In this document: positions 1 to 5,647 of the stretch, piece after piece | Position numbering within the stretch: the first letter of the stretch is position 1 | Layout of the letters: each line of letters starts with the position of its first letter | Source: a virus | Length of the DNA stretch: 5,647 nt | Direction: 5' to 3' (one strand) | Virus record (IMG/VR): IMGVR_UViG_3300007505_000271 | Span: 1 to 5,647 of that record | The notes under the pieces: model-generated | What the model saw: the letters and a program-made list of their open reading frames with translations, nothing else | Databases searched by the model: none | What the model was told of the DNA's origin: nothing | Position numbers and translations under genes: made by a program

Positions 1-12
1 GGTGTCACTCCG

Positions 13-39
13 CACACTTACATCAAGGAAGTAAGTGTG
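13..39 (-). other. Hairpin with 9-bp stem and 9-nt loop (copy 1 of the 4691-4717 element) in the VP3-VP8 intergenic region
   Basis: CACACTTAC (13-21) / loop atcaaggaa / GTAAGTGTG (31-39), a perfect inverted repeat. Confidence 0.7.
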
Positions 40-60
40 GCGAGCGAAACTGACCTAAGG

Positions 61-543
61 TCAGCTTCGCTTTTCATCCTTCGGCTTCGCCTCAGGAGGA
101 TTGACGAGCTCGACCTTTGCAGGTGGAGGCTCGACAGGATCGGGGGCAGCAAGGCCCCATTCTTGGAGATCCTTTTTGTTTTTGGGATCCTGAGCAAATT
201 CAACGAATTTGACAGGATCATTATCGAATTTGCGACGAACAGTCGCAGAGAGAGACATGAACGCAGAAGTAGCCTCGTTAAGAGTTTCGAGGGCGGTTTG
301 CATGTCAGGGACGTTAGAAACGTCCAGATAGCGGGGTTCACCCTTGTTGAGATTAGTAGGAGCGAGACCCGTGGCCTCGAAGCGAGCCATGAGGACGTTG
401 ATATCAGCGTCATCAGCAAATTCTTGCCGGGTCATAGAGGGATCATGGTTAGTATACGATGAAGCAATTCGCTCATCGTCAGATTGATGGACGACCATAG
501 AGGACATGAGTTCGCCATCAGAGTTACAGCCGCGGTAGCGCAT
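61..543 (-). CDS. VP3: VP3 internal scaffolding protein (gokushovirus type), 160 aa
   Basis: ORF-track 61..543. ATG start preceded by AGGA 9 nt upstream (aaaggatggtaaaacATG), 3 nt after the VP2 stop. Contains the MTRQEFADDADINVLMARF segment typical of gokushovirus VP3 as I remember it. Acidic/proline-rich C-terminus. Position after VP2 fits the family gene order. Confidence 0.85.
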   Translation of the reverse strand: MRYRGCNSDGELMSSMVVHQSDDERIASSYTNHDPSMTRQEFADDADINVLMARFEATGLAPTNLNKGEPRYLDVSNVPDMQTALETLNEATSAFMSLSATVRRKFDNDPVKFVEFAQDPKNKKDLQEWGLAAPDPVEPPPAKVELVNPPEAKPKDEKRS

Positions 544-546
544 GTT

Positions 547-1275
547 TTACCATCCTTTAAAGCGATTGTTGAAGGTATCGGACTGGTAGTGATTTTCACC
601 AGTCAGTTTATCCTTCCAGCTAGAGCCGGAAGAATGAGTTTCCGTCTTGTACGATTTCCAAGGCGCGACGGTATCAGAGAGTTTTTTAGCAGAGTTGAGA
701 ACGGGCGAGACCGCCCGTTCAGCTTCTTGGGCAGCGGTGCCAGCTTGCCGCACGGTTTTCATAGCCGACGTCCCCATGAGGGCAGCGTCGGTCCGTGCAT
801 TGAGGGCGCGCAGTTTAGCAGGATCAAGGTCCTGCGTTAAGATTTCACGCTCCGCAATAGACTTGACGTTTTGCGCATTTTTGAGAGCAGTATCAGCAGA
901 GATGTTTTTGTTAGTTTCTTGCATATTAGCAAGTTCGGCGGTTGCCCGCCGTACGGCGAGGCCCGTATTCACGGCCTCGCCGATAGGATTGCCCTCGATT
1001 TTCGGGGCAGTCAGCGCGGCCTGAGAGCCGCTTGGAGACGAAGCGCCGCCCTTTTGATAGGCCAGAATTGGGTTGAGACCAGCAGCCCGCATGTCGGCCA
1101 TCCCGCGTTGGTAAGCGGTATTGGACATGCGTTCTTGGAAGTCTCTGTTCAATTGGGCCTGAGCGGCGTTAGCTTCGTTAGTTTTTTCCGTGCTGTTCAT
1201 ATTGAACAGCCCGGTTAGGGTGCTGCCGACACCAGAGATTGCAGCACCCATTAGCATATCGTCGACACCGAACAT
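547..1275 (-). CDS. VP2: VP2 minor capsid / DNA pilot protein, 242 aa
   Basis: ORF-track 547..1275. ATG preceded by AAGGAG with a 9-nt spacer (ctAAGGAGactaccaatATG). Contains the FQERMSNTAYQRGMADMRAAGLNPILAY segment that matches the conserved VP2 motif remembered for Gokushovirinae. Gly/Ala-rich N-terminus. Confidence 0.9.
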   Translation of the reverse strand: MFGVDDMLMGAAISGVGSTLTGLFNMNSTEKTNEANAAQAQLNRDFQERMSNTAYQRGMADMRAAGLNPILAYQKGGASSPSGSQAALTAPKIEGNPIGEAVNTGLAVRRATAELANMQETNKNISADTALKNAQNVKSIAEREILTQDLDPAKLRALNARTDAALMGTSAMKTVRQAGTAAQEAERAVSPVLNSAKKLSDTVAPWKSYKTETHSSGSSWKDKLTGENHYQSDTFNNRFKGW

Positions 1276-1305
1276 ATTGGTAGTCTCCTTAGGTTACAGC
1301 GCATC

Positions 1306-1350
1306 CAAATCACTCCGGGAGATGCAAGAGGCATCTCCCTACGTGATTTG
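1306..1350 (-). other. Bipartite 17-bp extended hairpin in the VP1-VP2 intergenic region, about 16 nt upstream of the VP2 SD on the sense strand
   Basis: Outer stem CAAATCAC (1306-1313) / GTGATTTG (1343-1350). Inner stem GGGAGATGC (1317-1325) / GCATCTCCC (1331-1339), loop aagag, symmetric 3x3 internal loop. Confidence 0.7.
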
Positions 1351-1356
1351 ACGCGC

Positions 1357-1385
1357 AGGGAGGAAGTAAGGAAGGAAGGAAGAGG
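1357..1385. repeat. Polypurine (+) / polypyrimidine (sense strand) tract with (AAGG)3 microsatellite core
   Basis: agggaggaagtaaggaaggaaggaagagg: 28 of 29 bases are purines. AAGG is repeated in tandem over 1368-1382 and forms a mirror repeat. No ATG follows on the + strand. Confidence 0.8.
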
Positions 1386-1397
1386 CCATCCGGGAAC

Positions 1398-1412
1398 GGA
1401 AGCTTCGCTTCC
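1398..1412. other. Small hairpin (6-bp stem)
   Basis: GGAAGC (1398-1403) ttc GCTTCC (1407-1412). Confidence 0.4.
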
Positions 1413-1452
1413 TAGGGGCGTATGTTGCCCTTACACCGGAGGGACACGCGGT

Positions 1453-1470
1453 AGTCAGAACAAGCTGACT
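1453..1470. other. Small hairpin (6-bp stem, 6-nt loop)
   Basis: AGTCAG (1453-1458) aacaag CTGACT (1465-1470). Confidence 0.45.
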
Positions 1471-1477
1471 TACGCTT

Positions 1478-1502
1478 AAGGGGACCCCAGTGGGGTCCCC
1501 TT
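1478..1502 (-). terminator. GC-rich 11-bp hairpin 13 nt after the VP1 stop; terminator-like or mRNA-stabilising, but without a U-tract
   Basis: AAGGGGACCCC (1478-1488) agt GGGGTCCCCTT (1492-1502). On the sense strand it follows the VP1 TAG (1516-1518) and is followed by aagcgtaag, so there is no T-run outside the stem. Confidence 0.4.
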
Positions 1503-1515
1503 CGCAACCCCCCGC

Positions 1516-3096
1516 CTAGAAGTGATCTATGAGTCCAGGCACGCCATAGACAGGCATGGGGCGAGCACAGCGATAACGGAAGTAGCCATCGAATAGGAGA
1601 TCAGGCTCCGAAGGGACAGCGACGACGCGATCGACAGGAGGATTTTCCTCGATGAACGCAGCGTTGAGAGCCGGAGCAGTGGCGAAGTTTTGAGCAAGAT
1701 GCCACGTATCCAGAGGAACGGCAGAGTTAGAACGCATCCGACCAGTAATCATGGACGGTTTGTAGCGGTATTCCGCATAGCGTTCTTGATAGCCGAAGGC
1801 AGCGTCGGCAGTACCAGCGACATAAGGCGACGCGAGATAGATTTCTTTGTTAGCCACGACCTGTTCGCCAATGTGCGACAGAGCGGGCCAGTAGAAATCA
1901 AAGCGAGTGGAGCGAGACCACATTTTGTTGAGGCCCTGCTGATAGTTCAGATCAGCACGAGCAGAGATGAGGCCCAGAACGATAGTATGCTCAGTGAAAG
2001 ATTTAGAGAAGCCGACACGGCCTGAGGAGAAAGTACCCATAGCTGCAAGATTTCCTTGAGGCGAGGGCTGTGTGGCTGTCGAAGAAGTCTGAGCGATCGG
2101 ATTAACGTTAAGAGGTACAGAGCCACCACCGAGATATTCAGGACGGTTGAGGCGAGCGTCAGGAGAAGTAACGCCGAAGTGAGCACGAATAAGCTCCGTA
2201 TAGCGAGTACCGCCACGGGCGTCACGTTCGTAAATCTTTTGAACTTGGAACGCCTGACGTAGCGCGTTGATGGTTGAGGCGGTGGCAGTGGTGAGATCGG
2301 CATAGAGAGCGCCGGCAGGAGGCCCGAGCGAGATATTGACCGGGCCGGTTGCGGCAGTGAGGGCGCCGGTGCCAGCAGCACCTGAGATGGCGCCAGAGGC
2401 CGCAGAGTTAGTACCAGCAGAGAAAGCCGTCCAGGTACCGGCATTGTTGCCGCGAAGGACGGGAGCAGATGTTCCGAGAGGGAGGCTTACAGCCGGACCC
2501 TTTTGGGGCCACGGGAGGGCCGAGGTGAAGTAATCGTGGCGTTTGCCACGGCGAAGCAATGTGTAAAGCGTCGGGGCGTCCGGCCCGTCACCTTTAGGGA
2601 CGGAGACAGAATTTTGCAGATTTTGATCACGGAACCACTCGTTATAGATGAGGTTATAGGCCCGCAGGAAGAGAGCAGAATGAGGCATCCCTTGGATTTT
2701 TGTAGGGAGACCCATGTAGTCGTATATGGTTTGCTCACCATACCCGCCAGCGCCGGAAGTAATCGTGGGGATGATGAAAGAGGTGGAGTCACCCGGGTTG
2801 GGTTGCTCACCCATAAACCGTTGGAAGTTATCCCACACGAGGCGGAGCGGGACAGCGAAGAAGAAGACATCGATAAACATATTATCCATGAAGGGATGCA
2901 GCGGCGTAGCGAGACGGCCGAACATGGACATATTGAGATTGAAGGAGTCGCCCGGGAGGGCTTCGTCAACGAAGATGGGGACTAGGTAACCCGCATCGAA
3001 GGTAGTTTTAAGACCGTGGGACCGGTCGAAGCTAGAGCGCGGAATGTCAGCTTCCGGGACTTTGCTGAATTGATGGGCCATGACAGACCTAGACAT
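1516..3096 (-). CDS. VP1: VP1 major capsid protein (Microviridae F-like jelly-roll, gokushovirus type), 526 aa
   Basis: ORF-track 1516..3096. ATG at 3096 preceded by GAGGACT with a 6-nt spacer. N-terminus FSKVPEADIPRSSFDRSHGLKTTFDAGYLVPIFVDEALPGDSF, plus LPWPQKG and ERDARGGTRYTELIRAHFGV, are hallmark gokushovirus VP1 blocks as I remember them. Size is typical of the family. Confidence 0.97.
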   Translation of the reverse strand: MSRSVMAHQFSKVPEADIPRSSFDRSHGLKTTFDAGYLVPIFVDEALPGDSFNLNMSMFGRLATPLHPFMDNMFIDVFFFAVPLRLVWDNFQRFMGEQPNPGDSTSFIIPTITSGAGGYGEQTIYDYMGLPTKIQGMPHSALFLRAYNLIYNEWFRDQNLQNSVSVPKGDGPDAPTLYTLLRRGKRHDYFTSALPWPQKGPAVSLPLGTSAPVLRGNNAGTWTAFSAGTNSAASGAISGAAGTGALTAATGPVNISLGPPAGALYADLTTATASTINALRQAFQVQKIYERDARGGTRYTELIRAHFGVTSPDARLNRPEYLGGGSVPLNVNPIAQTSSTATQPSPQGNLAAMGTFSSGRVGFSKSFTEHTIVLGLISARADLNYQQGLNKMWSRSTRFDFYWPALSHIGEQVVANKEIYLASPYVAGTADAAFGYQERYAEYRYKPSMITGRMRSNSAVPLDTWHLAQNFATAPALNAAFIEENPPVDRVVAVPSEPDLLFDGYFRYRCARPMPVYGVPGLIDHF

Positions 3097-3102
3097 AAAG
3101 GC

Positions 3103-3147
3103 AGTCCTCGCATAGTTAGAGACAGGGCAATGTCGCCCTGGAGGACT
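3103..3147. promoter_or_regulatory. Nested dyad between the divergent VP1 and orf58 starts; each outer arm reads GAGGACT (SD) on the strand of the gene next to it
   Basis: Outer arms AGTCCTC (3103-3109) / GAGGACT (3141-3147). Inner arms CAGGGC (3123-3128) / GCCCTG (3135-3140), loop aatgtc, 13-nt one-sided bulge. VP1 reads GAGGACT-gccttt-ATG and orf58 reads GAGGACT-atagc-ATG. Confidence 0.6.
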
Positions 3148-3175
3148 ATAGCATGGCGATTCGGGTAGAGATCAA
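3145..3175 (-). promoter_or_regulatory. Candidate sigma70-type extended -10 promoter for VP1 (late operon), lying inside the 5' end of orf58
   Basis: Sense strand reads TTGATC (complement of 3170-3175), a 19-nt spacer, then TGcTATAGT (complement of 3145-3153). The -10 matches 5/6 with a TGn extension; the -35 matches 4/6 and the spacer is long. Identified by eye only. Confidence 0.3.
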
Positions 3176-3329
3176 CCGGGATTATCTGGAGAAGGCCCTT
3201 GATATGGCGGCCGGCGCGGCCACAAGGGCGAGCAATCAGAAGGGTATCAACCCGTTGATCAGGGAGATACATCAGAAGGACGCGGCAGCGTGGGTAGACG
3301 CAAAGAGATCGATTACCGAAGTGAAGTAA
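3153..3329 (+). CDS. Hypothetical 58-aa protein on the strand opposite all other genes (MAIRVEINRDYLEKALDMAAGAATRASNQKGINPLIREIHQKDAAAWVDAKRSITEVK); possible ribbon-helix-helix-like small DNA-binding protein
   Basis: Hand-translated; too short for the ORF track. ATG at 3153, TAA at 3327-3329. GGAGGA at 3140-3145, 7 nt upstream of the ATG. The stop is followed after 6 nt by a hairpin plus a T7 terminator. It fills a gap with no credible sense-strand ORF. Codon first positions are strongly purine-biased, as expected for a real reading frame, and residue composition is balanced and helical-looking. There is no homology evidence. Confidence 0.45.
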   Translation: MAIRVEINRDYLEKALDMAAGAATRASNQKGINPLIREIHQKDAAAWVDAKRSITEVK

Positions 3330-3330
3330 G

Positions 3331-3360
3331 AGAAAGGGGCCCCGAAGGGCCCCTTTTTTT
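3331..3360. terminator. Bidirectional rho-independent terminator between the convergent VP5 and orf58
   Basis: agaaa-GGGGCCC (3336-3342) cgaa GGGCCCC (3347-3353)-ttttttt. On the + strand the stem is followed by 7 T. On the - strand the loop reads UUCG (a C(UUCG)G tetraloop) and is followed by TTTCTCTT. It starts directly at the VP5 stop codon. Confidence 0.75.
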
Positions 3361-3613
3361 ACACAGTTTTAATTATGAGAGATAAGCAGGAGGTGATTTG
3401 CTCCGGAGGTGCGGTGCTAAATACACCATCTGCATCATCGAAAGACCCGAGTTTAAACAGAGTGTAGTCGGCCGCATGCTTAGAGAATTCATGTTTGGGA
3501 TCATTAACAGCGTCTGTGAGAGAGCGCAGCGCCGATCCGAGAGACGGAGAGAAGAAGGGTTGCATAAAGGCCTGTACGGCCGAGTCGTAGACACTGAAAA
3601 TCTCCATTTTCAT
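3359..3613 (-). CDS. VP5: VP5-like non-structural protein (gokushovirus ORF5 family; proposed analogue of phiX174 protein C in ssDNA synthesis/packaging), 84 aa
   Basis: ORF-track 3359..3613. The start overlaps the VP4 stop in ATGA (3610-3613). The pattern F.V.D......QPFF....G.A.R.......D......K...DY.LF.LG.FDD..G matches the remembered ORF5 proteins of Chlamydia and Bdellovibrio microviruses. Position between VP4 and VP1 fits. Confidence 0.75.
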   Translation of the reverse strand: MKMEIFSVYDSAVQAFMQPFFSPSLGSALRSLTDAVNDPKHEFSKHAADYTLFKLGSFDDADGVFSTAPPEQITSCLSLIIKTV

Positions 3614-4524
3614 AGAGTTCGACCTTTAGTTTTGAGCTTAGCCATTGCGACTAGCTCCTTGGTTACACGGCGACGATTAGAGTTGTCGCGCCTGTCGATT
3701 TTACGACGGCGAGCGATTTTTAGCAATTCGAGACGAGCAGCACAAGTAGGAGAGTCAGCGGAATAGCGATTGTCATAGTATCGCGGAAGAGAAGAAGGGA
3801 CCCCGTTAACAATAACGTTGTCATGAGTGTACATTTCCCCTTTGTAGTTATCGTAGTAGGTGCCGCCGATGCCCGGACGGCGAGACATAGTAATAAATTC
3901 GGGAGTTCTGCCCGAATAGAAGTATTTATATTTAGGATTGGAGGGTTTGAGCTTTTTCATGCAGTATCGGGCGGTATAGGCGCAGGATTCAAAAGTAACA
4001 TCTCCAATAACGGAGTTGCCTGCAGTCCACAGTTTGGACAGGGTATTTGAGCTATAGAGATTATATTCCGATCCAGTAGTTTGTACTCGGAGATCATTGA
4101 ACGTGTGCGAGAGCAAGAGCACGTGATAGTGAGGACGATAGGTTGTTTCGCCATATTCACCACAAGCGAAGAACCGGACCGATGATGATCGAGACCCATT
4201 GTTACTGATTTCATAGTGTTTTCTGAGCCTTTTCATAAAGAGTTGCAGATCACGTAGAACAAGAGTTGGCAAACCCCCATCAGTGTGTGGGAGGTGCTTG
4301 TTGTCATAGGTGAGAGTGAGGAAGGCAGAGTTTTGATGCATACGCTTTTCATGCATGCATCTGAGCGCCCATTGGCGCGAGTGCTCGAGCTTGCAGCCGA
4401 AGCAGAGTCCGCAAGGGACTTTTATAGGGATGCCGGTTGCCGACTTGTCCTTACGAAAGACAAGCCGGCGATCGGGAGAGCCCTCAGCCGGATAATAGGC
4501 TGTGAGAGGGCCATAGCAGGGCAT
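3610..4524 (-). CDS. VP4: VP4 replication initiation protein (HUH rolling-circle endonuclease, phiX174 A-like), 304 aa
   Basis: ORF-track 3610..4524. RCR motif I FLTLTY (aa 68-73). HUH motif PHYHVLL (H132-Y133-H134). Motif III with paired tyrosines, AYTARYCMKK (Y183, Y187). Cys cluster CGLCFGC (aa 38-44). The N-terminus MPCYGPL is typical of the family. The ATG directly abuts the VP8 stop (TAGATG). Confidence 0.95.
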   Translation of the reverse strand: MPCYGPLTAYYPAEGSPDRRLVFRKDKSATGIPIKVPCGLCFGCKLEHSRQWALRCMHEKRMHQNSAFLTLTYDNKHLPHTDGGLPTLVLRDLQLFMKRLRKHYEISNNGSRSSSVRFFACGEYGETTYRPHYHVLLLSHTFNDLRVQTTGSEYNLYSSNTLSKLWTAGNSVIGDVTFESCAYTARYCMKKLKPSNPKYKYFYSGRTPEFITMSRRPGIGGTYYDNYKGEMYTHDNVIVNGVPSSLPRYYDNRYSADSPTCAARLELLKIARRRKIDRRDNSNRRRVTKELVAMAKLKTKGRTL

Positions 4525-4644
4525 CTAGAGCCGGATGCCCCCGCGCATGGGGGCAGACCGGATATTTTTTACGTGCGTGTGGGACGCACTGTGACGGAAT
4601 TTGGAGCGGGAGGCGCTCCTGGACAAACCGTGTCGTTTTGCCAT
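4525..4644 (-). CDS. VP8: Small highly basic DNA-binding protein (gokushovirus ORF8/VP8, functional analogue of phiX174 J), 39 aa: MAKRHGLSRSASRSKFRHSASHTHVKNIRSAPMRGGIRL
   Basis: Hand-translated; below the ORF-track size cutoff. ATG at 4644 preceded by AAGGA with a 7-nt spacer (aaAAGGAatcctctgATG). There is an in-frame stop 8 codons upstream. 14 of 39 residues are K/R/H and none are acidic. The C-terminal MRGGIRL resembles the RGG(I/R)RF ends I remember for the Chlamydia-phage and SpV4 ORF8 proteins. Its stop TAG (4525-4527) touches the VP4 ATG. Confidence 0.75.
   Translation of the reverse strand: MAKRHGLSRSASRSKFRHSASHTHVKNIRSAPMRGGIRL
4536..4555 (-). promoter_or_regulatory. 7-bp GC hairpin at the VP8 3' end, 12 nt upstream of the VP4 start; candidate translational throttle for Rep
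   Basis: TGCCCCC (4536-4542) gcgcat GGGGGCA (4549-4555), flanked by direct CCGGAT repeats (4531-4536 and 4558-4563). VP4 has no clear SD of its own (ggctctagATG). Confidence 0.45.
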
Positions 4645-4668
4645 CAGAGGATTCCTTTTTAGAGGTTA

Positions 4669-4689
4669 GGAGTGACTTGGTGTCACTCC
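4669..4689 (-). other. 8-bp hairpin in the VP3-VP8 intergenic region; spans the arbitrary linearisation point
   Basis: GGAGTGAC (4669-4676) ttggt GTCACTCC (4682-4689). Confidence 0.65.
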
Positions 4690-4690
4690 G

Positions 4691-4717
4691 CACACTTACA
4701 TCAAGGAAGTAAGTGTG
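4691..4717 (-). other. Hairpin with 9-bp stem and 9-nt loop (copy 2 of 13-39); sense-strand loop TTCCTTGAT; candidate origin or structural element
   Basis: CACACTTAC (4691-4699) atcaaggaa GTAAGTGTG (4709-4717). It lies 1 nt from the preceding hairpin. Confidence 0.7.
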
Positions 4718-4727
4718 GCGAGCGAAA

Positions 4728-4742
4728 CTGACCTAAGGTCAG
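4728..4742 (-). terminator. Short hairpin overlapping the VP3 stop codon (also at 50-64), followed by TTT on the sense strand; weak terminator candidate for the late operon
   Basis: CTGACC (4728-4733) taa GGTCAG (4737-4742). On the sense strand the VP3 TGA lies in the 5' arm, and the stem is followed by tttcgctcg. Confidence 0.3.
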
Positions 4743-5221
4743 CTTCGCTTTTCATCCTTCGGCTTCGCCTCAGGAGGATTGACGAGCTCGACCTTTGCAG
4801 GTGGAGGCTCGACAGGATCGGGGGCAGCAAGGCCCCATTCTTGGAGATCCTTTTTGTTTTTGGGATCCTGAGCAAATTCAACGAATTTGACAGGATCATT
4901 ATCGAATTTGCGACGAACAGTCGCAGAGAGAGACATGAACGCAGAAGTAGCCTCGTTAAGAGTTTCGAGGGCGGTTTGCATGTCAGGGACGTTAGAAACG
5001 TCCAGATAGCGGGGTTCACCCTTGTTGAGATTAGTAGGAGCGAGACCCGTGGCCTCGAAGCGAGCCATGAGGACGTTGATATCAGCGTCATCAGCAAATT
5101 CTTGCCGGGTCATAGAGGGATCATGGTTAGTATACGATGAAGCAATTCGCTCATCGTCAGATTGATGGACGACCATAGAGGACATGAGTTCGCCATCAGA
5201 GTTACAGCCGCGGTAGCGCAT
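4739..5221 (-). CDS. VP3: VP3 internal scaffolding protein, second representation of the same gene (61..543) due to circular wrap-around
   Basis: Identical 160-aa translation at offset 4678. Confidence 0.85.
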   Translation of the reverse strand: MRYRGCNSDGELMSSMVVHQSDDERIASSYTNHDPSMTRQEFADDADINVLMARFEATGLAPTNLNKGEPRYLDVSNVPDMQTALETLNEATSAFMSLSATVRRKFDNDPVKFVEFAQDPKNKKDLQEWGLAAPDPVEPPPAKVELVNPPEAKPKDEKRS

Positions 5222-5224
5222 GTT

Positions 5225-5647
5225 TTACCATCCTTTAAAGCGATTGTTGAAGGTATCGGACTGGTAGTGATTTTCACCAGTCAGTTTATCCTTCCAGCTA
5301 GAGCCGGAAGAATGAGTTTCCGTCTTGTACGATTTCCAAGGCGCGACGGTATCAGAGAGTTTTTTAGCAGAGTTGAGAACGGGCGAGACCGCCCGTTCAG
5401 CTTCTTGGGCAGCGGTGCCAGCTTGCCGCACGGTTTTCATAGCCGACGTCCCCATGAGGGCAGCGTCGGTCCGTGCATTGAGGGCGCGCAGTTTAGCAGG
5501 ATCAAGGTCCTGCGTTAAGATTTCACGCTCCGCAATAGACTTGACGTTTTGCGCATTTTTGAGAGCAGTATCAGCAGAGATGTTTTTGTTAGTTTCTTGC
5601 ATATTAGCAAGTTCGGCGGTTGCCCGCCGTACGGCGAGGCCCGTATT
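5225..5647 (-). CDS. VP2: VP2 pilot protein, 3' part only (second representation of 547..1275; the 5' end is cut off by the window end)
   Basis: Identical to 547-969 at offset 4678. The ORF-track entry 5225..5602 simply starts at an internal Met (MQETNKNIS...). Confidence 0.85.
   Translation of the reverse strand, partial: NTGLAVRRATAELANMQETNKNISADTALKNAQNVKSIAEREILTQDLDPAKLRALNARTDAALMGTSAMKTVRQAGTAAQEAERAVSPVLNSAKKLSDTVAPWKSYKTETHSSGSSWKDKLTGENHYQSDTFNNRFKGW

Follow-up and report, generated by a model that had tools for sequence, protein, structure and literature searches.

Microviruses are among the most abundant single-stranded DNA (ssDNA) phages and are treated as strict one-strand coders. 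The stretch analyzed here, positions 1 to 5,647 of the IMG/VR virus record IMGVR_UViG_3300007505_000271 (5,647 nucleotides, hereafter the window), is a 4,678-nucleotide (nt) circular gokushovirus genome read 1.2 times, its bases 1-969 being an exact repeat of bases 4679-5647 (969-nt terminal redundancy). The VP5-VP1 gap in this genome (3097-3358, 262 nt) contains an open reading frame (ORF) of 58 codons that is opposite in orientation to all core genes and overlaps none of them. The following features were recognized at this locus.

3153-3329 (ATG at 3153, TAA at 3327-3329), plus strand: the 58-amino-acid (aa) gene, recognized from its ORF, homologs, frame-specific selection, fixed position in 33 genomes and predicted fold
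3140-3145, plus strand: Shine-Dalgarno (SD) sequence GGAGGA, with a 7-nt spacer to the ATG
3330-3360, both directions: intrinsic-terminator-like element, with GAGAAA, a stem GGGGCCC (3336-3342)/GGGCCCC (3347-3353), loop CGAA and seven T's (3354-3360)
3123-3140: GC dyad able to form a short hairpin, CAGGGC-AATGTC-GCCCTG, immediately 5′ of the small-gene SD (-11.9 kcal/mol, z = -2.6)
3103-3109 and 3141-3147: 7-bp inverted repeat AGTCCTC/GAGGACT, in which the VP1 SD (as its complement) faces the small-gene SD
3090-3122, plus strand: candidate small-gene promoter, weak in the window, with TAGACA over the first VP1 codons and CATAGT (15-nt spacer) or TAGAGA (21-nt spacer)
3145-3175, minus strand: candidate promoter of VP1, located within the 5′ part of the small gene, with TTGATC (3175-3170), a 19-nt spacer and TGc-TATAGT (-10 at 3150-3145)
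2982-3272, minus strand: 96-aa shadow ORF on the sense strand, not a gene (the minus frames contain 11, 12 and 51 stops in 15 genomes)
3359-3613, minus strand: VP5, the convergent neighbor, with which the 58-aa gene has its terminator in common (Pfam Phage_ORF5, E = 2.6e-24)
1516-3096, minus strand: VP1 major capsid gene, the divergent neighbor (Pfam Phage_F, E = 8.5e-185; PHROG major head protein)

A first-pass annotation, made by a model from the sequence of the window, had proposed the ORF as a genuine opposite-strand gene equipped with its own signals, and this description of the locus is borne out. The 262-nt gap and the plus-strand ORF lie where it placed them, GGAGGA is found 7 nt 5′ of the ATG, a GC hairpin with seven T's follows six nt past the stop, and the first codon positions are rich in purines (46 of 58). 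The frame-specific conservation described below bears out the central claim as well.

Frame-specific conservation of the reverse gene

The chance that 58 codons stay open in one frame is (61/64)^58, or about 6%, so that such an ORF is not rare by itself. Because its length is weak evidence, the case for a gene beyond chance is made by its conservation. Across 15 divergent genomes, the plus frame of the 58-aa gene contains no stop codon, compared with 11 to 59 in the other five frames. In the same genomes, the mean pairwise difference at codon positions 1, 2 and 3 is 0.40, 0.30 and 0.60, and the ratio of nonsynonymous to synonymous differences (pN/pS) is 0.44, with pS saturated at 0.78. Within the subfamily of the window protein, the pairwise ratio of nonsynonymous to synonymous substitution rates (omega) ranges from 0.08 to 0.3. 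Codon choice varies even where the residue does not: across relatives G21 and G31 are encoded by all four glycine codons (GGC, GGT, GGA and GGG), R25 by AGG, CGG or AGA and S27 by AGC, AGT or TCG, and alanine residues behave likewise. A frozen synonymous stretch, which would be a sign of an embedded promoter, is not evident inside the ORF when judged by eye. These results indicate that the ORF at 3153-3329 is almost certainly a real protein-coding gene under purifying selection in its own frame.

It could be argued that conserved non-coding elements, such as hairpins or an origin, have left the frame open as a side effect, or that a sense-strand ORF is the real gene. Sense-strand "hypothetical proteins" are indeed annotated over the reverse gene in at least seven GenBank records, and hairpins lie on both sides of the region. 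This explanation is already contradicted, and we give it almost no credence: the sense frames contain 11 to 51 stops in the 15 genomes and the plus frame none, synonymous sites are saturated while the protein is conserved, start and stop positions agree within 1-2 codons in about 170 sequences, and an Rfam search of the window returned zero matches. The 96-aa antisense ORF at 2982-3272, which the first-pass annotation had regarded as a shadow frame, exists and has no Pfam or PHROG match. Since the sense frames of relatives carry stops, ORFs of that strand over the 58-aa gene are shadow frames, the "hypothetical proteins" of the GenBank records among them.

A family confined to one gokushovirus clade

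A tblastn search with the 58-aa sequence recovered this ORF from GenBank microviruses whose samples came from blackfly, robin and other birds, again between VP5 and VP1 and on the opposite strand. Profile searches of large protein databases yielded 93 homologs at 90% clustering, and an exhaustive search of 1.84 billion representatives yielded 82 clusters at 50% identity. The approximately 170 homologs are all 56-62 aa long and align end to end, with starts and stops kept within 1-2 codons. The order VP1 (Phage_F), opposite-strand small gene, VP5 (Phage_ORF5) was found in 33 of 33 readable genomes, including those of members whose identity to the window protein is only 29%. A pattern scan found one locus in IMG/VR and one in JGI metagenomes, and among 80 IMG/VR gokushoviruses with VP1 60-66% identical, one passes the hidden Markov model (HMM) threshold and one diverged copy was seen. 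Among 54 gokushoviruses that lack the gene and have enough upstream sequence, VP5 and VP1 are separated by a median of 21.5 nt, versus 262 nt in the window.

All carriers fall into one clade of a neighbor-joining tree of VP1 from 101 genomes. MK249212 is the only genome of this clade without the gene, and its 87-nt VP5-VP1 gap (4479-4484 and 1-81) keeps a GC hairpin followed by TTTT. The annotated VP1 start of MK249212 is about 81 nt too early. The identity of the small protein tracks that of VP1 (Spearman rho = 0.35; means 35% versus 68%), and its divergence, in identity, is about twice that of VP1. The simplest history would be one ancient insertion followed by vertical inheritance with VP1, faster divergence than that of the capsid protein, and rare loss.

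Two further reverse ORFs were observed. A relative, L034, contains at about 1216-1404 (minus strand) a diverged 63-aa homolog (…EKEIASQKRAINTQKQPAF…) that has altered termini, keeps the terminator and falls below the HMM threshold. L109, a gokushovirus outside the clade, contains a 70-aa reverse ORF (1081-1293, minus strand) in a 288-nt VP4-VP1 gap, with neither SD nor terminator, and this ORF is probably spurious.

The first-pass annotation had also connected the gene with a possible lysogenic state. No family member was found on a contig above 8,306 nt, and 185,579 representative bacterial and archaeal genomes gave zero matches to patterns limited to the close subfamily. With contigs of at most 8.3 kb and no match in representative bacterial or archaeal genomes, there is no sign of lysogeny; prophage copies were not found, and the proposed connection is unsupported.

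In the GenBank records NC_027642, MK496752, MK249192, MK249150 and MK249174, sense-strand "hypothetical proteins" or an over-extended VP1 run across the reverse gene. Likewise, MZ364268, MZ364264, MK249149 and MK249153 have either sense "hypothetical proteins" or a VP1 that is over-extended at its N-terminus. The reverse gene itself is annotated in none of these nine records.

Expression signals and a likely moron-like arrangement

The signals around the gene recur among its relatives. A GGAG, GAGG or AGGA motif lies 4-13 nt 5′ of the start in 23 of 28 carrier genomes. At the other end in the window, the 7-bp GC stem begins six nt past the TAA, and the last two T's lie within the VP5 stop codon. 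The hairpin folds with -24.4 kcal/mol (z = -6.0) as plus-strand RNA and with -20.5 kcal/mol (z = -3.9) as minus-strand RNA, and a terminator scan assigns it to the minus strand. Terminators in the relatives were counted as GC hairpins, since the A- and U-runs pair with each other. Such a hairpin (-20 to -27 kcal/mol) is present directly 3′ of the stop in 26 of the 28 carriers, with stems that differ in sequence and pairing that is kept. A- and T-runs are found on either side of these hairpins, and because their relative lengths vary between genomes, either direction of termination may be the stronger. As GAGAAA precedes the hairpin, the element in the window can be read as a terminator for both the 58-aa gene and the convergent VP5. 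By its GC stem-loop, its U-run and its conserved position, the element at 3330-3360 is a predicted intrinsic terminator.

The start codons of VP1 and the 58-aa gene are 56 nt apart in the window, 54-62 nt apart in its subgroup and 35-83 nt apart elsewhere. Both SDs lie in the region between them, and most genomes add a short GC hairpin immediately 5′ of the small-gene SD. The position of this hairpin is kept in most carriers, with stems that vary (GGCGCGAT..TGCGCC, GAAGC..GCTTC), and the hairpin is absent from the subgroup with an intergenic region of about 35 nt. The inverted repeat at 3103-3147, the dyad to which the first-pass annotation had suggested testing the protein for binding, can pair over the long range (-19.9 kcal/mol on the plus strand, -20.9 kcal/mol on the minus strand); relatives do not keep it as an extended repeat. 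The VP1 and small-gene SDs are the same 7-mer GAGGACT in inverted orientation, and in any transcript that covers both, the SD could be masked within a stem of -20 kcal/mol.

Because the start codons are so close and the SDs and the hairpin lie between them, any promoter must overlap coding sequence. The 58-aa gene is on the strand complementary to all core genes and would thus be expressed only from the double-stranded replicative form. Of the weak promoter candidates suggested in the first-pass annotation, TAGACA (3090-3095) and CATAGT (3111-3116) are present with a 15-nt spacer, although no promoter there passes the scan. In 9-10 of 21 genomes, a TAGACA or TTGACA hexamer overlaps or adjoins the VP1 ATG, and a spacer of 16-18 nt separates it from TAGAGT, TAGACT, TAAGAT or TAGAAT; the TAGAGT-like hexamers of relatives lie 31-47 nt 5′ of the small-gene ATG. 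For VP1, a TAT..T hexamer was found 45-52 nt 5′ of the ATG in 8 of 21 genomes. If both candidate promoters are real, they would face each other and overlap.

Morons of lambdoid phages are autonomous promoter-gene-terminator units between conserved genes. Like these units, the 58-aa gene is small and stands alone, separates two genes that are neighbors in relatives, brings translation signals of its own as well as a factor-independent terminator, and is dispensable in at least one lineage. It differs from them in that it resides in a 4.7-kb ssDNA phage without evidence of lysogeny, in that the insert is ancient and vertically rather than sporadically inherited, and in that its promoter is a candidate. 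On this arrangement of sequence elements, we consider it likely that the gene forms its own, moron-like transcription unit.

Predicted structure of the 58-aa protein

The window protein is 6.4 kDa and predicted to be soluble, with an isoelectric point (pI) of 9.3 and a grand average of hydropathy (GRAVY) of -0.41. Across the family, the pI is 7.9-9.4 and the net charge +1 to +3. No Pfam family was found for it, the best PHROGs match was phrog_11447 at E = 0.13, and a PADLOC search of anti-defense and defense families gave nothing consistent. AlphaFold2 with the close-family alignment predicts extended residues 1-8, a helix at 9-27, a loop at 28-33, a second helix at 34-52 and extended residues 53-58 (mean predicted local distance difference test score, pLDDT, 94.2). 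The same fold was predicted for a 42%-identical member from a far more diverse alignment (pLDDT 92.1, helices 9-29 and 33-52). Thus, the protein is very probably an antiparallel two-helix hairpin with extended termini, as judged from these models. The best-conserved positions family-wide are the extended termini, MA-x-R-[VI]-[DE]-[LI] and T-[IL]-T-E-[VI]-K, together with A15, R25, N33-P34 and K42-D43. Between the helices, the loop sequence varies from one family member to another but is near-invariant (TRASNQKGINP) in the subfamily of the window.

Foldseek searches against PDB and BFVD returned nothing below E = 0.15, and all PDB matches have E of at least 0.8. The neighbors are generic helical hairpins (YscE/EscE, Sda-bound KinB, TraM, EncB and designed bundles), many of them four-helix bundles or partner-binders. 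With YscE/EscE, TraM, Sda, EncB and the designed DF1, the 58-aa protein has in common its fold class and size, at non-significant TM-scores of about 0.7 over 43-51 residues. It differs from them in having no sequence relationship and conserved extended termini that have no counterpart there, at E of at least 0.8. Rop is also counted among four-helix-bundle dimers.

We know of no gokushovirus lysis gene, and a small accessory protein expressed apart from the main operon might act in lysis or inhibit cell-wall synthesis, the more so as none of the seven ORFs scanned against Pfam and PHROG (initial ORF listing with a 40-aa cutoff) matches a lysis gene. Such a role is highly improbable, however. 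The 58-aa protein has no transmembrane segment (maximum Kyte-Doolittle 15-residue mean 0.25, besides the negative GRAVY), the gene is limited to one clade, yet every gokushovirus must lyse its hosts, and one member of the clade lacks it.

DNA-binding folds

The first-pass annotation had read the protein as a ribbon-helix-helix (RHH) regulator. One part of that reading stands, as in the AlphaFold models the N-terminal segment is extended and two helices come after it; the assignment to the RHH fold does not. No RHH family was hit in Pfam at E ≤ 10 by any of 88 + 82 members, hhalign gave probabilities of 0.3% against CopG and 0.1% against Arc, profile searches of PDB found no RHH protein, and no RHH chain is among the best 50 Foldseek PDB matches listed for either model. 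The packing geometry differs too: at pLDDT 92-94, the models pair the helices in an antiparallel hairpin, and at 19-21 residues each helix is too long. The N-terminal residues 1-8 are extended, with an alternating pattern (R4-V5-E6-I7), and position 6, where RHH strands read DNA, is a conserved Asp or Glu. The protein is like Arc, CopG, MetJ and ParD in its small size, in its extended N-terminus followed by two helices and, in the window's subfamily, in a G-I-N turn before helix 2. It is unlike them in the length and antiparallel packing of its helices, the conserved C-terminal extended segment, the acidic strand residue and the lack of any profile or structural match.

Two other resemblances were evaluated. 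In the close subfamily, residues 21-33 (G-x-x-T-R-A-x4-G-I-N) have the same spacing as helices C and D of Fis (GNQTRAALMMGIN). The Fis-type helix-turn-helix (HTH) family Pfam HTH_8 gave a best E of 0.003, below the gathering threshold, and was matched by 32 of 88 close members versus 3 of 82 members of the broad family. The hhalign probability for Fis was 7.9%, and the predicted model runs one continuous helix across G21. A similarity to the N-terminal helix of cystatin had E = 0.045 with a narrow profile and 0.98 with a broad one. Both the Fis-like spacing and the cystatin-like helix appear to be chance.

The main rival to the interpretation given below is broader than the RHH fold, which would be a subset of it: a nucleic-acid-binding regulator of the divergent 56-nt region between VP1 and the small gene, acting for example at the 3123-3140 dyad, that would repress or time VP1-VP3 and itself and possibly maintain a carrier state. 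The start codons are 54-62 nt apart with a GC dyad between them in most carriers, the terminator divides VP4-VP5 from VP1-VP3 in the carrier clade, and the facing, overlapping candidate promoters would interfere with each other. The strand-helix-helix topology and a pI of about 9.2 would suit such a protein. There are also opposite-strand repressors in other ssDNA phages, such as RstR of CTXphi, a filamentous ssDNA phage. Like RstR-type genes, the 58-aa gene is the sole reverse-oriented gene of a small ssDNA phage and diverges from the major operon. RstR-type repressors, however, are XRE-type HTH proteins of temperate phages encoded beside the replication gene, whereas the 58-aa protein shows no HTH or RHH signal, its gene is beside the capsid gene, and prophage copies were not found. 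Against a regulator there are also the lack of any DNA-binding family match (hhalign below 1% for CopG and Arc), the sub-threshold HTH_8 matches largely restricted to the close subfamily and the low Fis score, the long antiparallel helices and the conserved Asp/Glu in the strand. Moreover, the subgroup with an intergenic region of about 35 nt keeps the protein without the dyad, and MK249212 retains the terminator without the gene. Taken together, a nucleic-acid-binding regulator of the VP1 boundary is possible and rather unlikely.

A proposed accessory cassette encoding a partner-binding protein

Our preferred explanation, with a probability of roughly 0.55, is that the locus works as an accessory cassette with transcription of its own, whose product is a small protein that binds a partner as a modulator or inhibitor. 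Transcription of the gene would take place on the plus strand of the replicative form. It would start from a dedicated promoter that covers the first VP1 codons and is opposed by a VP1 promoter within the 5′ part of the small gene, and the transcript would end at the GC hairpin that it has in common with VP5, tail to tail. The two-helix hairpin may dimerize into a four-helix bundle, which would bind a host or phage partner protein and act as a small modulator or inhibitor. The protein would then be neither an enzyme nor a sequence-specific RHH repressor. As for the mode of action, we hold protein binding to be somewhat more likely than nucleic-acid binding.

Several observations weigh against this explanation. 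No sigma-70-like promoter in the 58-aa gene region of the window passes the scan, and the promoter candidates are consensus matches. The AlphaFold models are single-chain, and monomer models cannot show oligomerization. Because the Foldseek matches are non-significant, it is the fold class that carries the protein-binding claim. The adjacency to VP1, the conserved dyad by the SD and the mild basicity of the protein also suit a nucleic-acid-binding regulator, and MK249212, which lacks the gene, indicates that the gene is dispensable.

The partner might also be a phage protein such as VP4, VP5 or VP1, with the 58-aa protein acting as a cofactor in replication, packaging or assembly, for which phiX174 C or K would be the analogy. 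The gene adjoins VP5 and VP1 and is inherited strictly vertically with the capsid gene, and a phage partner that is itself conserved could be the docking site for the terminal motifs kept across the family. Yet such a role needs no opposite orientation, most gokushoviruses have the same core proteins without this gene, and a J/VP8-like packaging protein is probably encoded already at 4525-4644. We regard a cofactor role as very unlikely.

As a carrier of a small accessory gene outside the core set, the window resembles phiX174 with E and K and phiMH2K with orfN. Those genes are embedded in other genes of the coding strand (the annotation of orfN places it on the plus strand), whereas the 58-aa gene runs in the opposite direction and is free of overlap with any gene.

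A more far-reaching scenario, to which we attach a small probability, is that of an ambisense genome in which the reverse gene, the bidirectional terminator and the two face-to-face promoters would make up a minimal switch that decides whether capsids are produced or the replicative form persists in a non-lytic carrier state.

Core genes and other features of the genome

The Gokushovirinae core set VP1-VP5 is complete and entirely on the minus strand, as identified by Pfam and PHROG matches. Besides VP5 and VP1, it comprises the following genes.

3610-4524, minus strand: VP4 replication initiator
547-1275, minus strand: VP2 pilot protein
61-543, minus strand: VP3 scaffold protein (Pfam Chlamy_scaf)

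A very basic 39-aa ORF (4525-4644, minus strand; MAKRHGLSRSASRSKFRHSASHTHVKNIRSAPMRGGIRL) abuts the VP4 start. Its C-terminal segment ...KN....PMRGGIRL is kept in 12 relatives, and it is probably a J/VP8-like DNA-packaging protein. The gap between the VP1 stop and the VP2 start (1276-1515, 240 nt) shows raised GC content (0.56-0.59) and a switch in AT skew, with no credible ORF. This gap could be the site of an origin or another regulatory element.

Implications

A complementary-strand ORF in a microvirus has been remarked on once before in the searchable literature, where we did not find a description of the 58-aa family. Roux et al. (2012; PMC3394797) noted such an ORF in the Microviridae genome Human_gut_33_003 and called its orientation "highly unusual", with no other case known to them. 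Like the 58-aa gene, that ORF is predicted opposite to all other genes of a microvirus. By its description it is set apart, with 153 codons in a single genome, a location beside a peptidase M15 gene and unreported conservation, whereas the 58-aa family is clade-wide in gokushoviruses, 57-58 aa long and found at a fixed VP5/VP1 site. It is also evident from the searchable literature that curators have deleted reverse genes, microviruses being treated as single-strand coders. What is new here is an orphan family of 57-58-aa proteins. Its gene would form an autonomous cassette of accessory type, in viruses that were believed to have no genes of opposite orientation.

Gokushovirus genomes have been synthesized and resurrected (PMC7062461). 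Since the 58-aa gene overlaps no other gene and gokushovirus genomes can be resurrected, a clean knockout is feasible.

In the carrier clade, the layout of transcription would be changed by a terminator between the replication and capsid modules. If the improbable switch between capsid production and a carrier state were true, it would be the first immunity-like module in Microviridae, with neither an integrase nor a classical repressor fold. The reverse gene explains the wrong-strand "hypothetical proteins" and over-extended VP1 starts in GenBank. More generally, a reverse gene that is present clade-wide contradicts the one-strand rule, and this rule can erase real genes from curated sets.

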